Below are positions 1 through 9,096 of a stretch of 64,000 nt of DNA, piece after piece. The position numbers and the translations under genes are program-made. This DNA comes from Natronospirales bacterium. GTDB taxonomy: Bacteria; Pseudomonadota; Gammaproteobacteria; Natronospirales; JAIVGZ01. The notes below the pieces were generated by a model. It was given only the letters and a program-made list of their open reading frames with translations, had not been told where the DNA came from and did no database searches. The stretch lies in assembly GCA_020201335.1 (NCBI GenBank), contig JAIVGZ010000005.1:45099-109098 (forward strand), written 5' to 3'. Position 1 is the stretch's first letter, and each line of letters begins with the position of its first letter.

Positions 1-202
1 GCCACTGTTCGGCTGCCGTCGACGACGGTTCCGCGACTGCCCAGTAGGCATCATCGGTGACGCGAACGACGACGGATGCGGTTGCCTCCGCAGCCGACCG
101 AAACCACGATTCCGCATGCTCCTTGCCGATGCCGGCGGCGAGGCGCGTCTTGACCGGCGAGAACCCCGGCGTCTTGACGAAGATGGCGATGGCGCCGGTC
201 AT
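1..202 (-). CDS. TIGR04282/DUF2064-family glycosyltransferase-like protein (partial, runs off left edge)
   Basis: Hand translation from ATG 202, which overlaps the upstream stop: MTGAIAIFVKTPGFSPVKTRLAAGIG. The VKTRLA motif fits the family. Not in the ORF track. Confidence 0.8.
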   Translation of the reverse strand, partial: MTGAIAIFVKTPGFSPVKTRLAAGIGKEHAESWFRSAAEATASVVVRVTDDAYWAVAEPSSTAAEQW

Positions 203-852
203 GCGTGACGCGCCGAGAACAGGCGCGCCTGCAGGATAGTGGCAGTCGCATGCCGCGCGGTGACGCGGAACCAGCCTTCGTCCGCGTAGCGGCGGCCGCT
301 CGTGTACAACGGCGCCCGCAAGCGCGTCACGGGGATGCGCGCGTGGCGGGCAGCCCAGACCAGCGCATGATCCTCGGCTGCCGCCAGGGTCTCGTCGAAA
401 CCGCCGAGCTGGTTGTATACCGCGCGGGGCATCAGCAAGCCCTGGTCACCGAACGGGAGTCCAAACCAGCGGCTGCGCAGGTTGCCGAAGAATGCGTTGA
501 CGGCCATCCACGGCGGGCCGTCGTAGAAGCGCAGGTCGCAATACCCGAGCATGTCGCGGTCCGGCGCTGTGGCGACCGCATCGAGGGTCGCCGGCACGAC
601 TCGGCTGTCCGCATGGATGAACCATAACCACGGCCGCGCTGTGGCGGCGGCGCCCGCGTTCAGCTGGCGCGCCCGCCCGGGCTCGCCTTCGACGACCCGC
701 ACGCCGGTCGTTTCGGGCAGCGGCGGCACGTCGCCGTGGACGCATGACAGCACCCGTTCGCCGACCTCATGCAATTGTGGCAGCAGCGGGACCCATTCTC
801 GCTCGCCGGGCCCCGCTGGGATGATGACCGCGATGTCGCTCAGGCGGGGCAT
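199..852 (-). CDS. GT2 glycosyltransferase, TIGR04283-like
   Basis: VIIP start, GRARQLNAGA, FIHADS, PFGDQGL, GGFD..AED and TSGRRY motifs; start trimmed to MPRLSD. Confidence 0.85.
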   Translation of the reverse strand: MPRLSDIAVIIPAGPGEREWVPLLPQLHEVGERVLSCVHGDVPPLPETTGVRVVEGEPGRARQLNAGAAATARPWLWFIHADSRVVPATLDAVATAPDRDMLGYCDLRFYDGPPWMAVNAFFGNLRSRWFGLPFGDQGLLMPRAVYNQLGGFDETLAAAEDHALVWAARHARIPVTRLRAPLYTSGRRYADEGWFRVTARHATATILQARLFSARHA

Positions 853-853
853 G

Positions 854-1903
854 TCAGCAGCACGGGGCTGCGGGCGCTCCGGCGCGCTCGGCGGGCGCAC
901 AGTCGAACAGGCCGAAGTGCGTCCGTTTGTCGCCGGCGATGCGGAAATGGCGCGCATAACGCGACCGGGACAGCATATCCGCGGTGTTGCCGCACACCGC
1001 GAGCGGCCGCCCCGTCTCGAACAGATGATGGTCGTCAAGTACGAACCGGTGCGGGTGGCCGGCTATCGTTCCCAGATAAGTCGCGACCTGCCCGAAGTTC
1101 TCGCAGCGGTCCTCGAGCGGCAGCTTGAAGCCGCGTATCGTCAACGAGCGGAACGTGACGAAACCGATTTTCCGCTCGATATCGGCATCGAGCAACGGCA
1201 CGGGTGACGAACTCACGACCCTCGCGTCGGCGCAACCGGCGGCCGCCAACACGCGGCGGAAGTCCTCGACGTACAGTGCGCCGCCGAGGCATTCGCCGCG
1301 CAGCACCGGGTCGTCGCGCAACGCTGCGGGAATGCGACGGTCTGCGAACACGTCCGAAAAATAGAACTCGCCGCCGGGCTTAAGCACCCTCAGCATCTCT
1401 GCGAACACGCGGTCCTTCTCCGGCGACAGGTTCAGCACGCAGTTCGAGACCACGACGTCGACCGTGTCGTCGGCGATGCCCGCATCGGCCAGGTCCTCGA
1501 TGTAACCGTGGCGGAACGCCACGTTCGGCGTCCGGTATCCATAGCGCTCCATGTGCCAATCCACGTGGCGTCGTGCGACCGCGAGCTGTTCTTCGGTCAT
1601 ATCCACGCCGATGACCCGCCCTTGCTGCCCGACGAGGCGAGAGAGTACGTAGCAGTCCCGGCCCGTGCCGCACCCGAGGTCGAGGACGGTGCAGCCATCG
1701 AGCGCCGGCGGCAACGGCGCGCCGCATCCGTAGAAGCGCTCGCGCACTTCCGGGTGTACGTCGGCGACGAGGCGTCGCAGCGGTTCCGGCAGCGACTCCG
1801 TCGCGCAACACGCGCCGGTCTTGAGGTCTGCGCTCGATTGCAACACCTCGCCGTAATATCGGCGGACGTCGTCTAGCGTGGAGGGTTCAGGAATTGCGTT
1901 CAT
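854..1903 (-). CDS. arsM: arsenite methyltransferase (ArsM/AS3MT)-like SAM methyltransferase
   Basis: KTGACC, FYGCG, VLDLGCGTGRD, VSNCVLNLS and GECLGGA carry the ArsM-type Cys set; C-terminal CC. Confidence 0.75.
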   Translation of the reverse strand: MNAIPEPSTLDDVRRYYGEVLQSSADLKTGACCATESLPEPLRRLVADVHPEVRERFYGCGAPLPPALDGCTVLDLGCGTGRDCYVLSRLVGQQGRVIGVDMTEEQLAVARRHVDWHMERYGYRTPNVAFRHGYIEDLADAGIADDTVDVVVSNCVLNLSPEKDRVFAEMLRVLKPGGEFYFSDVFADRRIPAALRDDPVLRGECLGGALYVEDFRRVLAAAGCADARVVSSSPVPLLDADIERKIGFVTFRSLTIRGFKLPLEDRCENFGQVATYLGTIAGHPHRFVLDDHHLFETGRPLAVCGNTADMLSRSRYARHFRIAGDKRTHFGLFDCAPAERAGAPAAPCC

Positions 1904-3887
1904 CGGCGCTGCCTCGGGCGTTGAGGTTCGTGACGGGGTGTGCGCGGCCGCGGCGCCACGCGAAGAACTTTTCGGCCAATCGCAGCTTGACGAAACCGTG
2001 GTCGGCGCCGTCGGCGATCGCACGGTCGAGGTCGTCGATGCCGTAGCGCGTCACTTCGACCTCGACACCGCGCTCGCGGGCTTCGTCCTCCGACAGCCCG
2101 ACCCGCGCGACCTCAGGATCGGTGAAGGTCGCCCAAGGGATCACACTATAGTCGGCGCGGAAACTCCAGAACGGCGCGAGCAGCCCGTTCAGCGATGCAT
2201 ACCAGGCCTGGTGCGCGGCGACGTGGGTGAACTGGAATGGGCCGGTGACGTCGCCCGCGACCAGGATGTTCGGGAAGTTGGTGCGCAGGAACCCGTCCGC
2301 CTCGACCGTGCCCCGGGAGGTGAGGCACACGCCGAGTTCCTGGAGGCCGAAGCCGTCGACGTTCGCTTTCCGTCCGAGCGCGACCAACACGCGGTCGAAC
2401 GGCAACGCGACTTCCCGACCGTCGTGTTCGCAGACGAGTTCGTCTCTCGACGGCCCACGGGCCACGCGCAGTGCACGGTGCGCCGAGGCGACTGTGATCC
2501 CCTCGGCGTTGAAACGCGCTTCGAGTTCAGCGGCCGCGTCGGCATCCTCGCGAGGCAACAGGCGCGGCGCCATCTCGACCACCGTCACCTCGCTGCCGAG
2601 ACGTCGGAAGCACTGCGCGAGTTCGCTGCCGATCGGCCCGCCGCCGAGCACGATCAGTTGGCGCGGCAGTTCGCGTAGGTCCCAGATGGAGTCGCTCGTG
2701 AGGTAGTCGACCTGATCGAGGCCGGGAATCGGCGGCACGAGGGCGCGCGCGCCGGTCGCGACGATAATCGCGCGGGCGCTGATGCGACGGTCGCCCACCG
2801 CGACCTCCCAGGGTGAAACGAGCTGCGCGTCGCCCTGTATTACGTCGACGCCGAGTGAACGGTAACGCTCCGGCGAGTCGTGCGGCTCGACCTTGCGTAT
2901 CACGGTCTTGACGCGGTCCATGACTTCCGCGAAGTCGAACTCCGCGCGCATGCTGCGGATGCCGAATCGGTCTGAATCGCGGGCGTCCGCGAGCAGGCGT
3001 GCCGACCGGATCAGCGCCTTCGACGGCACGCAGCCGGTGTTCAGGCAGTCACCGCCCATCCGGTGCTTCTCGACCAGCGCGACCTTCGCGTTCACCGCGG
3101 CGCCGATGTACGCCGACACCAGGCCGGCGGAACCGGCGCCGATGACGATCAGGTTGTAATCGAACGCGCGTGGTTTGGTATGGCCGCGGTAAACGCGGTG
3201 TGCCGCGACCGCGCGTGCGAACCACCGTGTGATCAGCGGCAGGAGGCCGATGATCACGAACGCGCCGATGAGTCCCGGCGACAACACGTCGCCGGCGCTC
3301 TCGATGCGTGCGAGCTGCGTACCCGCGTACACATAGGCGAGCGTGCCGGGGACCATGCCCAGCTGGCTGACCCAGTAGAATGTCCAGGTTTTGAGCGCGG
3401 TGAGGCCAGCCAGCAGGTTGATCACGAAGAACGGGAACACCGGCACCAGTCGCAATGTGAACAGGTAATACCCGCCGTCCTTGCGGACGCCGTCATCAAT
3501 CCTGGCGAGCCGGTCGGAATACCGCGCCCGCAGCCAGTCGCGCAACACGAAGCGCGCGACCAGGAACGCCAAGGTCGCGCCGATGGTGCTCGCGAACGAG
3601 ACTAGGACGAAACCTTGCGCCAGGCCGAACAGCGCACCCGCCGCGAGCGTCATCACCGCGGCGCCGGGAATCGACAGTGCGGCGACCGCGACGTAGAGGC
3701 CGAAGAAGCCCGCGAACGCGCGCACCGGGTGCGCGTCGATCCATGCAGCGAGGTCCGCCTGGTGTGCTTTAAGCGCCTCGAGGTCGAGCTGTCCGGCGAT
3801 GCCGCTTTGATACAGCACGAGCGCGACGACGACGAGCACGGCGATGACGGCGACGCGGAGCAGGGTACGGCGGCGATTTGGGCTCAT
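1887..3887 (-). CDS. VTT/DedA membrane domain fused to flavoprotein disulfide reductase (MerA/Lpd-like); dimerisation domain appears internally deleted
   Basis: LRLVPVFPF (VTT), GAGSAG, GGDCLNTGCVPSK, GGGPIG; GFVK runs directly into LRLAEKFF with no H..PT..E segment. Confidence 0.85.
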   Translation of the reverse strand: MSPNRRRTLLRVAVIAVLVVVALVLYQSGIAGQLDLEALKAHQADLAAWIDAHPVRAFAGFFGLYVAVAALSIPGAAVMTLAAGALFGLAQGFVLVSFASTIGATLAFLVARFVLRDWLRARYSDRLARIDDGVRKDGGYYLFTLRLVPVFPFFVINLLAGLTALKTWTFYWVSQLGMVPGTLAYVYAGTQLARIESAGDVLSPGLIGAFVIIGLLPLITRWFARAVAAHRVYRGHTKPRAFDYNLIVIGAGSAGLVSAYIGAAVNAKVALVEKHRMGGDCLNTGCVPSKALIRSARLLADARDSDRFGIRSMRAEFDFAEVMDRVKTVIRKVEPHDSPERYRSLGVDVIQGDAQLVSPWEVAVGDRRISARAIIVATGARALVPPIPGLDQVDYLTSDSIWDLRELPRQLIVLGGGPIGSELAQCFRRLGSEVTVVEMAPRLLPREDADAAAELEARFNAEGITVASAHRALRVARGPSRDELVCEHDGREVALPFDRVLVALGRKANVDGFGLQELGVCLTSRGTVEADGFLRTNFPNILVAGDVTGPFQFTHVAAHQAWYASLNGLLAPFWSFRADYSVIPWATFTDPEVARVGLSEDEARERGVEVEVTRYGIDDLDRAIADGADHGFVKLRLAEKFFAWRRGRAHPVTNLNARGSADERNS

Positions 3888-3895
3888 GAATAACG

Positions 3896-3923
3896 GGACC
3901 GGTAGTGGGGCGCGGAAATTTCA
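3896..3923 (-). promoter_or_regulatory. ECF-type promoter TGAAAT-N16-CGGTCC for the reductase/arsM operon
   Basis: Same motif and spacing as the copies at 3960 and 5140; 8 nt upstream of ATG 3887. Confidence 0.7.
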
Positions 3924-3959
3924 GTATGGGCACGCGCCGACACTGCGCAACAAAGAATT

Positions 3960-3987
3960 TGAAATAGAAGCGTGGCAGCCCCGGTCT
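3960..3987 (+). promoter_or_regulatory. ECF-type promoter TGAAAT-N16-CGGTCT for trx-ccdA
   Basis: Motif read directly; upstream of AAGGAG RBS and the thioredoxin gene. Confidence 0.7.
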
Positions 3988-4009
3988 GCTGTATGACGAA
4001 CCAAAGGAG

Positions 4010-4402
4010 ATGAACATGCTGAGAACACTGGTGCTGACTCTGGTCGTGATGCTCGCATCGCCTGTTGCCGAAGGGGCTGAAGCACGACCGTACAGCGACG
4101 AGGCGTTCGCGGCGCTTCAGGCCGAGGGGTCGCCAATCCTCGTCGATGTGTACGCGACTTGGTGCCCAACGTGCCGGCGGCAGGGTCAGATCCTCGAACC
4201 GCTGCTCGCGGAGCCGGAATTCGCCGGCCTGATCGTGCTGAAGCTCGACTGGGATGCGCAGCGGGACGCCGCGCGCGCGCTCGGTGCGCCGAGGCAAAGT
4301 ACGCTGATTGTGTTCCGCGGCGATGAGGAGCGCGGCCGCTCGATTGCCGATACCAGCGAGGCGGGCATCCGCGGGCTGCTCGAACGCGCGGTCGCCGATT
4401 GA
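4010..4402 (+). CDS. exported thioredoxin-family protein
   Basis: Signal peptide, WCPTC active site, RQSTL cis-Pro-region variant. Confidence 0.85.
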   Translation: MNMLRTLVLTLVVMLASPVAEGAEARPYSDEAFAALQAEGSPILVDVYATWCPTCRRQGQILEPLLAEPEFAGLIVLKLDWDAQRDAARALGAPRQSTLIVFRGDEERGRSIADTSEAGIRGLLERAVAD

Positions 4403-5131
4403 ATGGAATGGGGTCTGGCGACGCTCGGGTTGGCCGCGCTGGCCGGCCTGCTGACCATGCTGAATCCGTGCGTGCTGCCCCTCCTGCCGGTCGTAGCGAG
4501 CGCGGCGATGGCGCGCTCCGCTGCTGGGCTGCTCGCGCTGGCCGGCGGCATGAGCGTGACCTTCGCGGTCGCCGGGACCGCGCTGGCCGCTACCGGGCAG
4601 GTGGTGGGGCTGGAAGGCGACACGTTACGTTTAACGGCCGCCGTACTGATGGTGCTGGTCGGACTATTGCTGGTCAGCGCACCGCTCCAGCGGGCGTTCG
4701 CGCGTGCGACTGCGGGTATCGCCGACTTCGGTCACGCAGCCCTCGCAAGGTTCCAGCCGGAGGGTGCCGGTGGGCAGTTCGCCGCGGGCGCGCTCTTGGG
4801 GCTCGTGTGGACGCCGTGCATCGGACCGACGCTTGGGGCGGCAATCGCGCTCGCGGCGCAGGGAGAAGCCCTGCCGCAGGTGGCCGCGGTCATGGTGGTG
4901 TTCAGCCTGTTCGCCGTGCTGCCGCTGGCGGCGATCGGGTTTGCGTCCCGGGTAGGGTTCCAACGCCATCGCGCCACCGCGGCGGGCTTCGGCAGGACCG
5001 GCCGGACGCTGATGGGTTATGGCCTGCTGGCCATCGGGCTGCTGGTGCTGACCGGCGGCGACAAGGTGCTCGAGACCCTGGTACTCGACCATGCGCCGGA
5101 CTGGCTGATCGACCTCACGACCCGGTACTGA
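4403..5131 (+). CDS. ccdA: CcdA/DsbD-beta transmembrane thiol-disulfide transporter
   Basis: NPCVLPLLP and WTPCIGPTLG motifs, about 6 TM segments. Confidence 0.88.
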   Translation: MEWGLATLGLAALAGLLTMLNPCVLPLLPVVASAAMARSAAGLLALAGGMSVTFAVAGTALAATGQVVGLEGDTLRLTAAVLMVLVGLLLVSAPLQRAFARATAGIADFGHAALARFQPEGAGGQFAAGALLGLVWTPCIGPTLGAAIALAAQGEALPQVAAVMVVFSLFAVLPLAAIGFASRVGFQRHRATAAGFGRTGRTLMGYGLLAIGLLVLTGGDKVLETLVLDHAPDWLIDLTTRY

Positions 5132-5139
5132 CGCACGCG

Positions 5140-5167
5140 TGAAATCACAAGTGCCACAATCCGGTCT
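5140..5167 (+). promoter_or_regulatory. ECF autoregulatory promoter TGAAAT-N16-CGGTCT
   Basis: 7 nt upstream of ATG 5175 of the sigma gene. Confidence 0.72.
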
Positions 5168-5174
5168 TATGGGT

Positions 5175-5696
5175 ATGACCAGCGACCATCAACGGTTCGA
5201 AACGCTCGTCGGCGCGTTGCTGCCGCAGCTGTACCGGTATGCGTACTGGTTGAGCCGCAACCGCAGTCTCGCGGAGGACGTCGTCCAGGAAGCGTTGATA
5301 CGGGCGTGGAAATCGCTCGATTCATTACGGGATGACAGCAAGGCCAAGAGCTGGCTGTTCACGATCATCCGGCGCGAGCACGCGCGGCATTATGAAAAGC
5401 GCCGCCTCGAATGCGTGGACATCGACACGGTCGAGGTCGCCGAGACCGAGCATTCACCGGTCGAGGCCGATGCGGAGCTCGACGACCTGCGGCGGATGGT
5501 CTCGCGCCTGGACGTCGCGTACCGCGAGCCGTTGGTCCTGCAGGTCGTCGTGGGCTGCTCGTGCGACGAGATCGCCGAACTGATGGACCTGACCCGCGCG
5601 GCCGTGCTCACGCGCCTGTTTCGCGCAAGGCAGCAGTTGATGAAGATGGCGGACGCCCCCGCCGAAGCGAAGAGGTCCCAAAATGGAATGCCTTGA
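5175..5696 (+). CDS. ECF sigma-70 factor
   Basis: AEDVVQEALIRAW, SWLFTIIRRE and region 4 EIAELM..AVLTRLFRAR; start placed after the promoter motif. Confidence 0.92.
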   Translation: MTSDHQRFETLVGALLPQLYRYAYWLSRNRSLAEDVVQEALIRAWKSLDSLRDDSKAKSWLFTIIRREHARHYEKRRLECVDIDTVEVAETEHSPVEADAELDDLRRMVSRLDVAYREPLVLQVVVGCSCDEIAELMDLTRAAVLTRLFRARQQLMKMADAPAEAKRSQNGMP

Positions 5697-6375
5697 ATTC
5701 CGCCGACGGCTGCTGGAAAACCCGCGCGACCAGACCGCGGCGCTGTCCGCGCACCGGCTCGGATGCCGTGCATGCAGCGAATGGGCGGCGCAGGCACAGG
5801 CGTTCGATGTACGGCTGCGGCGCGCGCTGGACGTCCCCGTCCCCGACGGCCTGGCAGAAAAGGTGATGATGGAGGCCACTTGGAAGCCGGTCAGGCGGCG
5901 GCGCTGGTACGCGTTCGCGGCGTCCGCGGCTGCGGTGACACTGGCCGCGACCCTGATCGCGGTGCAGTTGTGGCAAGGGGCGCCGCTCGCCGACACGGTG
6001 GTCCAGCACCTGTACCACGAGCCGGAATTGCTGATGATTGAGGACGGGGCTGTCACCGATACGCAATTGCGTGCTGTGCTGCAGCGCGTCGGTAGTCGGC
6101 TCGACGGCGACATCGGCCGTGTCATCCATGCTGGGCTGTGCCCGATCGCGGGGCGGCTCGCCGCGCACCTCGTCGTACAGGGCACCCACGGCCCCGTCGC
6201 AGTAATCGTGATGCCACGTAACGGTATCGACACAGTCACGCCGGTCCGCGACGGTGCGCTGCACGGCTCCGTGGTGCCAATCGCACGCGGGAGTGTTGCA
6301 ATCGTCGGCTTTGACGGCGAAGACCTCGACGCGCTGGTCGAGCGCGTGCGCGCCGGCCTCGTGCAGGAAGCTTGA
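5683..6375 (+). CDS. DUF3379-like membrane anti-sigma factor with ZAS motif
   Basis: MECLEFRR, HxxxCxxC (HRLGCRAC), single TM, periplasmic domain; overlaps the sigma gene. Confidence 0.8.
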   Translation: MECLEFRRRLLENPRDQTAALSAHRLGCRACSEWAAQAQAFDVRLRRALDVPVPDGLAEKVMMEATWKPVRRRRWYAFAASAAAVTLAATLIAVQLWQGAPLADTVVQHLYHEPELLMIEDGAVTDTQLRAVLQRVGSRLDGDIGRVIHAGLCPIAGRLAAHLVVQGTHGPVAVIVMPRNGIDTVTPVRDGALHGSVVPIARGSVAIVGFDGEDLDALVERVRAGLVQEA

Positions 6376-6376
6376 A

Positions 6377-6405
6377 TTGACAGCATCCCAAGCGCCCCGT
6401 ACAGT
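6377..6405 (+). promoter_or_regulatory. sigma70 promoter of the trp operon
   Basis: TTGACA-17 bp-TACAGT. Confidence 0.8.
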
Positions 6406-6413
6406 TCGCCCCA

Positions 6414-6491
6414 ATGTCACGCATCGAGAACAAGATGATTGCCCGTCGCTGGTGGTGGTGGACCCACTCCCCGGCGGGCGTTCGCGCGTGA
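6414..6491 (+). CDS. trpL: trp attenuator leader peptide MSRIENKMIARRWWWWTHSPAGVRA
   Basis: Four tandem TGG codons (6450-6461) upstream of a terminator and the trp genes. Confidence 0.88.
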   Translation: MSRIENKMIARRWWWWTHSPAGVRA

Positions 6492-6526
6492 CCCGGCAGC
6501 ACTGAAGCGCTGACCGGATAACCCTG

Positions 6527-6557
6527 AAGCCCGCCATATCGGCGGGCTTTGTCATTT
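6527..6557 (+). terminator. trp attenuator terminator hairpin
   Basis: AAGCCCGCC-ATATC-GGCGGGCTT plus T-rich tail; competing GGCGGGC at 6473-6479. Confidence 0.85.

Positions 6558-7613: not shown

Positions 7614-9096
<1,483 letters not shown>

Follow-up and report, generated by a model that had tools for sequence, protein, structure and literature searches.

The locus and its repeated element

The window analysed here, the whole of a 64,000 nt stretch of contig JAIVGZ010000005.1 (positions 45,099 to 109,098, forward strand) from the Natronospirales assembly GCA_020201335.1, carries at its left end the genes for an extracytoplasmic function (ECF) sigma factor of the ECF28 type and a DUF3379 anti-sigma factor, a thioredoxin gene paired with ccdA (trx-ccdA), and a divergent operon with a reductase gene and an arsM-like gene. 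The sequence TGAAAT-N16-CGGTC was found ahead of the sigma gene, of trx-ccdA and of the reductase operon. The features are as follows:

1..202, minus strand: 5' part of the gene for a TIGR04282-like (DUF2064) glycosyltransferase (120.5 bits, below the cut-off of 134), running on to the left of the window
199..852, minus strand: TIGR04283-like 'arsenosugar' glycosyltransferase (151.8 bits, below the cut-off of 182)
854..1900, minus strand: ArsM/AS3MT-like arsenite methyltransferase (E 9e-106 to the solved arsenite methyltransferase 5evj; below the curated NCBIfam ArsM cut-offs)
1887..3887, minus strand: VTT/DedA membrane domain fused to a flavin disulfide reductase (domain matches)
3897..3923, minus strand: predicted ECF28 promoter of the reductase operon, exact TGAAAT-N16-CGGTC, 9 nt before the reductase ATG (3887)
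3960..3986, plus strand: predicted ECF28 promoter of trx-ccdA, exact TGAAAT-N16-CGGTC
4016..4402, plus strand: thioredoxin (WCPTC), with a signal-like N-terminus judged by eye
4403..5131, plus strand: CcdA/DsbD-TM membrane electron carrier (domain match)
5140..5166, plus strand: predicted autoregulatory promoter of the sigma gene, exact TGAAAT-N16-CGGTC, 8 nt before the sigma ATG (5175)
5175..5696, plus strand: ECF28-type sigma factor (PRK12517, 211 bits, cut-off 197)
5683..6375, plus strand: DUF3379 anti-sigma factor of 230 aa (PF11859, E 1e-43)

The three copies are exact, lie where the initial annotation had placed them and have spacers unrelated to one another; shuffled versions of the window held a mean of 0.03 copies, and none of 100 shuffles reached three. 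The gene identities proposed in that annotation (reductase, ArsM-like protein, glycosyltransferase, Trx, CcdA, ECF sigma factor and DUF3379 protein with HxxxCxxC) were upheld, as was the closeness of two sites to an ATG. Between CGGTC and the ATGs of the reductase and sigma genes there is no space for a ribosome-binding site, whereas trx has AAGGAG at 4004-4009 ahead of its ATG at 4016; the reductase and sigma mRNAs are predicted to be leaderless. In a simple scan the stretch from 3800 to 6370 was free of sigma-70-like promoters, the first one to its right starting at 6377, before a trp leader.

The whole assembly (1.83 Mb, 85% complete) holds one further exact copy, on contig C15, which was attributed to chance as no plausible gene start lies downstream. 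When the genome was scanned with a matrix trained on 33 sites of orthologous sigma genes, none from this genome, the sigma site ranked first and the trx site second. A match on contig C44 was also put down to chance, being inside a coding sequence with no plausible gene start after it.

The minus-strand operon extends beyond the left edge of the window, where it contains the rest of the TIGR04282-like glycosyltransferase gene, arsS (TIGR04167, 443 bits, cut-off 300), an AhpD-like peroxidase gene (TIGR01926, above cut-off) and genes for what we take to be flavodoxin-like and DUF3047-like proteins. Because it continues into arsS, the operon was assigned to the NCBIfam 'arsenosugar' cluster, the product being predicted: arsS, the arsM-like gene and glycosyltransferase genes of the TIGR04282 and TIGR04283 types stand in one operon, the glycosyltransferases matching these models best, below cut-off. 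The ArsM-like protein aligns with 5evj over residues 11-346, a full-length similarity to solved ArsM enzymes, and its activity is predicted. The ArsM cluster of the initial annotation is in this way retained as to the arsM-like gene and refined to an arsS cluster that reaches past the window.

The ECF28 assignment and the predicted promoter in orthologues

ECF28 has been described as marked by a single-pass DUF3379 anti-sigma factor encoded at position +1 (Casas-Pastor et al., 2021, PMC7826278), and a DUF3379 protein with one predicted membrane helix is encoded at +1 here. By proxies, namely the PRK12517 score above cut-off, the DUF3379 neighbour and 49% identity to a Vibrio sigma factor in the described ECF28 thiolase/FadL context, the sigma factor is classed as ECF28-type. 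The thiolase/FadL/hydroxyacyl-CoA dehydrogenase surroundings of ECF28 s1/s2 are absent, the neighbours being trx-ccdA, the arsS cluster and the trp operon; among the loci examined, the thiolase/FadL context was found only in Vibrio. The comparison suggests that the sigma factor belongs to an ECF28 subgroup other than s1/s2. It has neither the small soluble zinc anti-sigma factor of ECF293 (ECF13), its partner being a 230-aa membrane protein, nor the ECF16 promoter GTAAC-N14-16-CG(A/T), since the element ends in GGTC(T).

Orthologous sigma genes were found to carry nG(A/T)AAT-N17-GGTC(T), mostly 6-13 nt upstream of the start. A fixed rule (G.AA-N17/18-GGTC close to the start) held at 35/37 orthologous sigma genes from the order and the top matches and at 15 of 18 further class-wide orthologues (20 of 40 DUF3379 matches were taken, two of which showed no sigma gene), compared with only 5/67 unrelated ECF genes, the control set left by a first scan of relatives in which 12 of 80 loci were true orthologues. 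The conservation at orthologous loci on which the initial annotation had made its motif depend is therefore present. On these comparisons the repeated motif is, with high confidence, the promoter that the ECF28-type sigma factor next to it recognises, and the element upstream of the orthologous sigma genes is very likely their autoregulatory promoter, mostly leaderless.

This assignment is weakened by the choice of the rule after these sites had been seen and by the reductase site, which at 12.8 bits by the orthologue matrix is the lowest of the three and lies outside the genome's top 19. In addition, genome-wide counts of loose patterns were above those of the reversed control in DUF3379-negative genomes too (17 vs 11), and such counts were dropped as a discriminator for that reason. 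Recognition of the sites by a different sigma factor or by a transcription factor, or a chance match on the reductase side, is nevertheless considered very improbable. The assembly does encode two other ECF-like sigma factors, and the low score of the reductase site would suit a chance match, but neither of those sigma genes has such a site upstream, the element tracks the orthologues of this sigma factor across the class and not other ECFs, and independent arsS operons carry it.

The 2021 classification described predicted ECF28 promoters as not conserved and suggested a role in aromatic degradation (PMC7826278, supplement). Its promoter search covered 200 bp upstream of the annotated operon (PMC7826278), so that a site inside an over-long frame would be missed. 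At the Vibrio locus GGAAAG-N16-CGGTC lies within an upstream-extended reading frame, and the ECF28 proteins published for V. cholerae and S. frigidimarina are extended at the N-terminus by residues that fit the same spacing; to judge by their amino acids, these extensions would hide the same element. Over-long annotated frames may thus explain why the ECF28 promoter was missed. ECF28_1088 has been used as a synthetic part (PMC3817407, PMC6101570), and ECF28 has been employed on a modified group-19 promoter (PMC6101570), the Rhodius promoter library containing no Pecf28. In published data Pecf19_up1315 was activated 7.7-fold by ECF28_1088, the highest of the 77 values shown, and 3.4-fold by ECF28_1040; by our own reading of the element, this fragment holds CGGTC 9 nt ahead of an ATG. 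Literature searches, extended to Todor 2020 with its supplements, where ECF28 is present as column labels only, returned no ECF28 promoter or regulon, though per-protein tables under other identifiers and subscription papers might hold one. Searches for DUF3379 together with ECF sigma factors, and for ECF control of the arsenosugar cluster, found no paper.

Regulon, signal and neighbouring genes

In a sister family (f7) the element stands at the head of all six arsS operons, which show three different layouts and carry arsS genes of two divergent types; DUF3379 was found in the three of these six genomes that were searched for it and in 15/16 f7 genomes sampled. Two families in which DUF3379 was not found differ from this. 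The element precedes arsS in 0/6 genomes of family f2, and in family f3 TGTAAC-N16-CGTC is present instead in 2/3 genomes, between divergent arsS and reductase genes (L118/L216, L119/L169), likely sites of a further, third type of ECF sigma factor acting on this cluster. Class-wide, 79 arsS loci out of 189 arsS genomes were examined for the element at distances of up to 300 nt from arsS or the reductase gene, and it was found in 4/12 DUF3379-positive genomes and in none of the 67 negative ones; kinship among the genomes inflates the significance of this difference (Fisher p 3e-4). Another element, TGTAA(G/C/T)-N16-CG(A/T)C, was found within 300 nt of arsS at 7/79 loci vs 0 reversed. Sites of the TGTAAG-N16-CGAC type, which we take to be ECF293, were seen in other gammaproteobacteria ahead of arsS or of the operon that contains it (L166, L180, L181, L233, L172, L186, L191).

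Other candidate targets were sought in five f7 genomes, where 30 of 32 pattern matches were cut out and read. These lie ahead of the own sigma gene (4), msrA (2), thioredoxin-like genes (4), bufferin-precursor-like genes (3), bufB (1), arsenosugar genes (2), a second ECF sigma gene (2) and a HAD gene (1); two matches that fall within egtB-like coding sequence and nine that were unclear were left out of the target count. For MsrA and BufB the NCBIfam cut-offs are exceeded, while the thioredoxin-like and precursor names were given by eye. Single matches in relatives precede a dsbB-like gene and the gene for a GAF protein, presumably MsrC. One congener has sigma, anti-sigma, trx and ccdA genes in a single unit, and in another TGAAAT-N15-CGGTCT heads an MNIO-peptide operon whose last gene encodes this sigma factor. 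The second, different ECF sigma gene behind an ECF28-type element in L334 and L351 (f7) suggests a sigma cascade in these genomes.

Judged by its predicted sites, the regulon is local in this assembly and dispersed in relatives. The self-contained regulon of the initial annotation accordingly describes this assembly and does not extend to relatives, where msrA, bufferin, thioredoxin-like and dsbB genes are included. Since these are its targets there, an oxidant/thiol-stress regulon is indicated rather than an arsenic-specific one, and the evidence points to arsenic methylation as one module of a broader redox regulon. Control of an arsenic module by this sigma factor, as first annotated, gains from the element heading arsS operons in relatives, and has to be widened as redox genes are also targets there.

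The anti-sigma N-terminus reads C3...H24xxxC28xxC31, with HxxxCxxC at residues 24-31 kept in 34/38 homologues (the Vibrio orthologue lacks it), and Cys153 of the outer domain is kept in 33/38. A structure model (predicted local distance difference test, pLDDT, 91) has three N-terminal helices, a hydrophobic helix of membrane length at 74-97, likely transmembrane, and an alpha/beta C-terminal outer domain. A profile search of the PDB gave weak matches only (RsiW resemblance of the N-terminus, E 0.19), and a structure-atlas search returned DUF3379 alone when queried by structure and unnamed clusters when queried by features. The thioredoxin is likely periplasmic because of its signal-like N-terminus and its pairing with CcdA.

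It is probable, on balance, that the ECF28-type sigma factor drives its own operon, Trx-CcdA and the arsS/arsM operon on oxidant or thiol-reactive stress, with a function in redox stress. The DUF3379 protein would hold the sigma factor at the membrane until oxidant, thiol-reactive or soft-metal stress acts on HxxxCxxC and/or the periplasmic cysteine and releases it. The freed sigma factor would then read the motif at its own operon, trx-ccdA and the arsS/arsM 'arsenosugar' operon, and positive feedback at the auto-promoter would amplify the repair genes. Trx-CcdA would be an output feeding periplasmic electrons, which is likelier than the reset of the signal at the cytoplasmic zinc site first proposed, because a periplasmic Trx could not directly re-reduce HxxxCxxC there. 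It could act on the conserved periplasmic cysteine of the anti-sigma factor.

A number of observations count against this account. The C3-H24 spacing of 20 is shorter than the 23-26 of the zinc-binding anti-sigma motif (C/H-X23-26-H-X3-C-X2-C, PMC7907618). The link to arsS is patchy, arsS having been found in 16/66 genomes of the order and 0/4 congeners. A universal ECF28-arsS link was rejected. No nearby site was found at 8/12 DUF3379-positive arsS loci; of the four positive loci one is weak and two come from one genus, and the reversed-sequence control gave 3/79. In this assembly the motif was not found at the msrA, DUF692 cluster, msrC-like and dsbB-like genes, and the redox reading therefore rests on relatives. 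On contig C33 (~4680-5800, minus strand) an HvfA-like precursor gene with repeated CGEG(K/R)C precedes the DUF692 gene with no ECF28-type promoter, unlike in congener G003.

The same promoter and sigma factor could instead serve an envelope or periplasmic cue, read by the outer domain of the DUF3379 protein and relayed by proteolysis, with the zinc motif structural only, as it is in RsiW. The single-pass anti-sigma factor with a folded outer domain in the model, the weak RsiW likeness of its N-terminus, the Vibrio orthologue that retains the promoter though lacking HxxxCxxC, and the extracytoplasmic location of several targets would all agree with this. It is nonetheless judged unlikely, as the zinc motif is retained in most of the anti-sigma homologues and the targets serve the repair of thiols, methionine and metal damage, as under the redox-sensing ECF13/293 and ECF16 (PMC7907618, PMC3420878).

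As in the initial annotation, no ArsR of arsenic type was found in the 85%-complete assembly, in which the sole HTH_5/HTH_20 match over cut-off is an ArsR-methyltransferase fusion. This absence, the ArsM- and ArsS-type genes under the motif and the three cysteines offered by the anti-sigma factor would be expected of an arsenic-specific system in which As(III) binds those cysteines and the sigma factor replaces ArsR. Such a system is thought improbable: most sigma-bearing relatives have no arsS, the targets are mostly non-arsenic repair genes, and arsC-acr3 is located elsewhere, behind phoU, where the genome-wide matrix scan lists no site. The arsC-like and acr3 genes lie directly behind phoU (contig C47:45293-47316, minus strand), with no arsR between or adjacent in the stretch read.

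Near position 1985 the reductase lacks ~68 C-terminal residues, including HIYPT, that are present in 7/7 orthologues shown. Comparable gaps (43-132 residues) were found in 13 clusters among ~251 loci matched in the assembly, and as several of these genes look essential the gap is probably an assembly error, real pseudogenisation being disfavoured. Clean internal gaps of ~130-400 nt were noted in many genes, for example on contigs C45 (~38337), C29 (~4160) and C60 (~3025) and in L001 at ~8350-8500 (hisB) and ~12700 (flavodoxin-like); broken genes in this assembly are best treated as possible assembly errors. Downstream of the anti-sigma gene, at 6377-6551 (plus strand), a sigma-70-like promoter is combined with a terminator hairpin and a leader peptide (6435-6491) in which four codons are for Trp. 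A gene for 3-deoxy-D-arabino-heptulosonate 7-phosphate (DAHP) synthase and trp genes follow, and the region is a predicted tryptophan attenuator that also covers DAHP synthase.

Comparison with known systems

Whether the finding can be generalized is evenly balanced. In its general form, ECF28 would be an oxidative-repair sigma system, the third of its kind and so far unrecognised, with a promoter, nG(A/T)AAT-N17-GGTC(T), that was missed inside over-long starts in Vibrio and Shewanella; a zinc-motif subgroup would have taken over ECF293/ECF16 targets (Msr, bufferin, Trx-CcdA, DsbB) and, on several independent occasions, captured the arsenosugar cluster. If this is true, repeated capture by unrelated stress sigma factors would make the 'arsenosugar' pathway mainly an oxidant/thiol-stress response. 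The arsS cluster is widespread (189/400 class genomes), and ECF28 would be a second sigma group supporting the view that it is often wired to redox-stress sigma factors, not ArsR. ECF28 occurs in Vibrio and Shewanella and serves as a synthetic-biology part, with no native promoter, regulon or signal found in the searched literature; a concrete promoter makes the group directly testable and could yield a better-matched part.

The group as described is like the system here in its DUF3379 single-pass anti-sigma factor at +1 and its gammaproteobacterial occurrence (PMC7826278). It is set apart by predicted promoters described as not conserved and by a suggested role in aromatic degradation (PMC7826278), whereas here the promoter is conserved, the anti-sigma factors form a subgroup with a zinc motif and the targets point to redox repair; a concrete promoter challenges the suggested aromatic-degradation role. 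With respect to the NCBIfam 'arsenosugar biosynthesis' set (TIGR04167 ArsS, TIGR04282, TIGR04283, TIGR04169) with ArsM, the operon has ArsS above cut-off, both glycosyltransferase types and an ArsM-like enzyme, the glycosyltransferases and ArsM scoring below curated cut-offs.

The initial annotation did not recognise the promoter-regulon link as described, which has to be qualified for Trx-CcdA: no ECF28 promoter on the arsenosugar cluster was found in the literature searched, while Trx-CcdA under a peroxide-induced ECF sigma factor has been published for ECF16 EcfF (PMC3420878). EcfF-OsrA of Bradyrhizobium japonicum is peroxide-induced and autoregulated, its targets including a ccdA-like gene, a periplasmic thioredoxin and Msr enzymes, and a periplasmic electron supply has been proposed for bll1026/bll1027 (PMC3420878). 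Its transcription starts near the annotated ATG, as is predicted for the system here, but its promoter is GTAAC-N14-15-CG, its anti-sigma factor is another one and its listed targets include no arsenosugar genes (PMC3420878). ECF13/ECF293 (H. influenzae RpoE2-HrsE, Neisseria SigE) is alike in a zinc-motif anti-sigma factor and redox-repair targets, there msrAB and DoxX-like, and differs in a small soluble anti-sigma factor, another -10 element and another sigma group (PMC7907618). By analogy, the system resembles the ECF16 and ECF13/293 oxidative-repair systems and is a member of neither.

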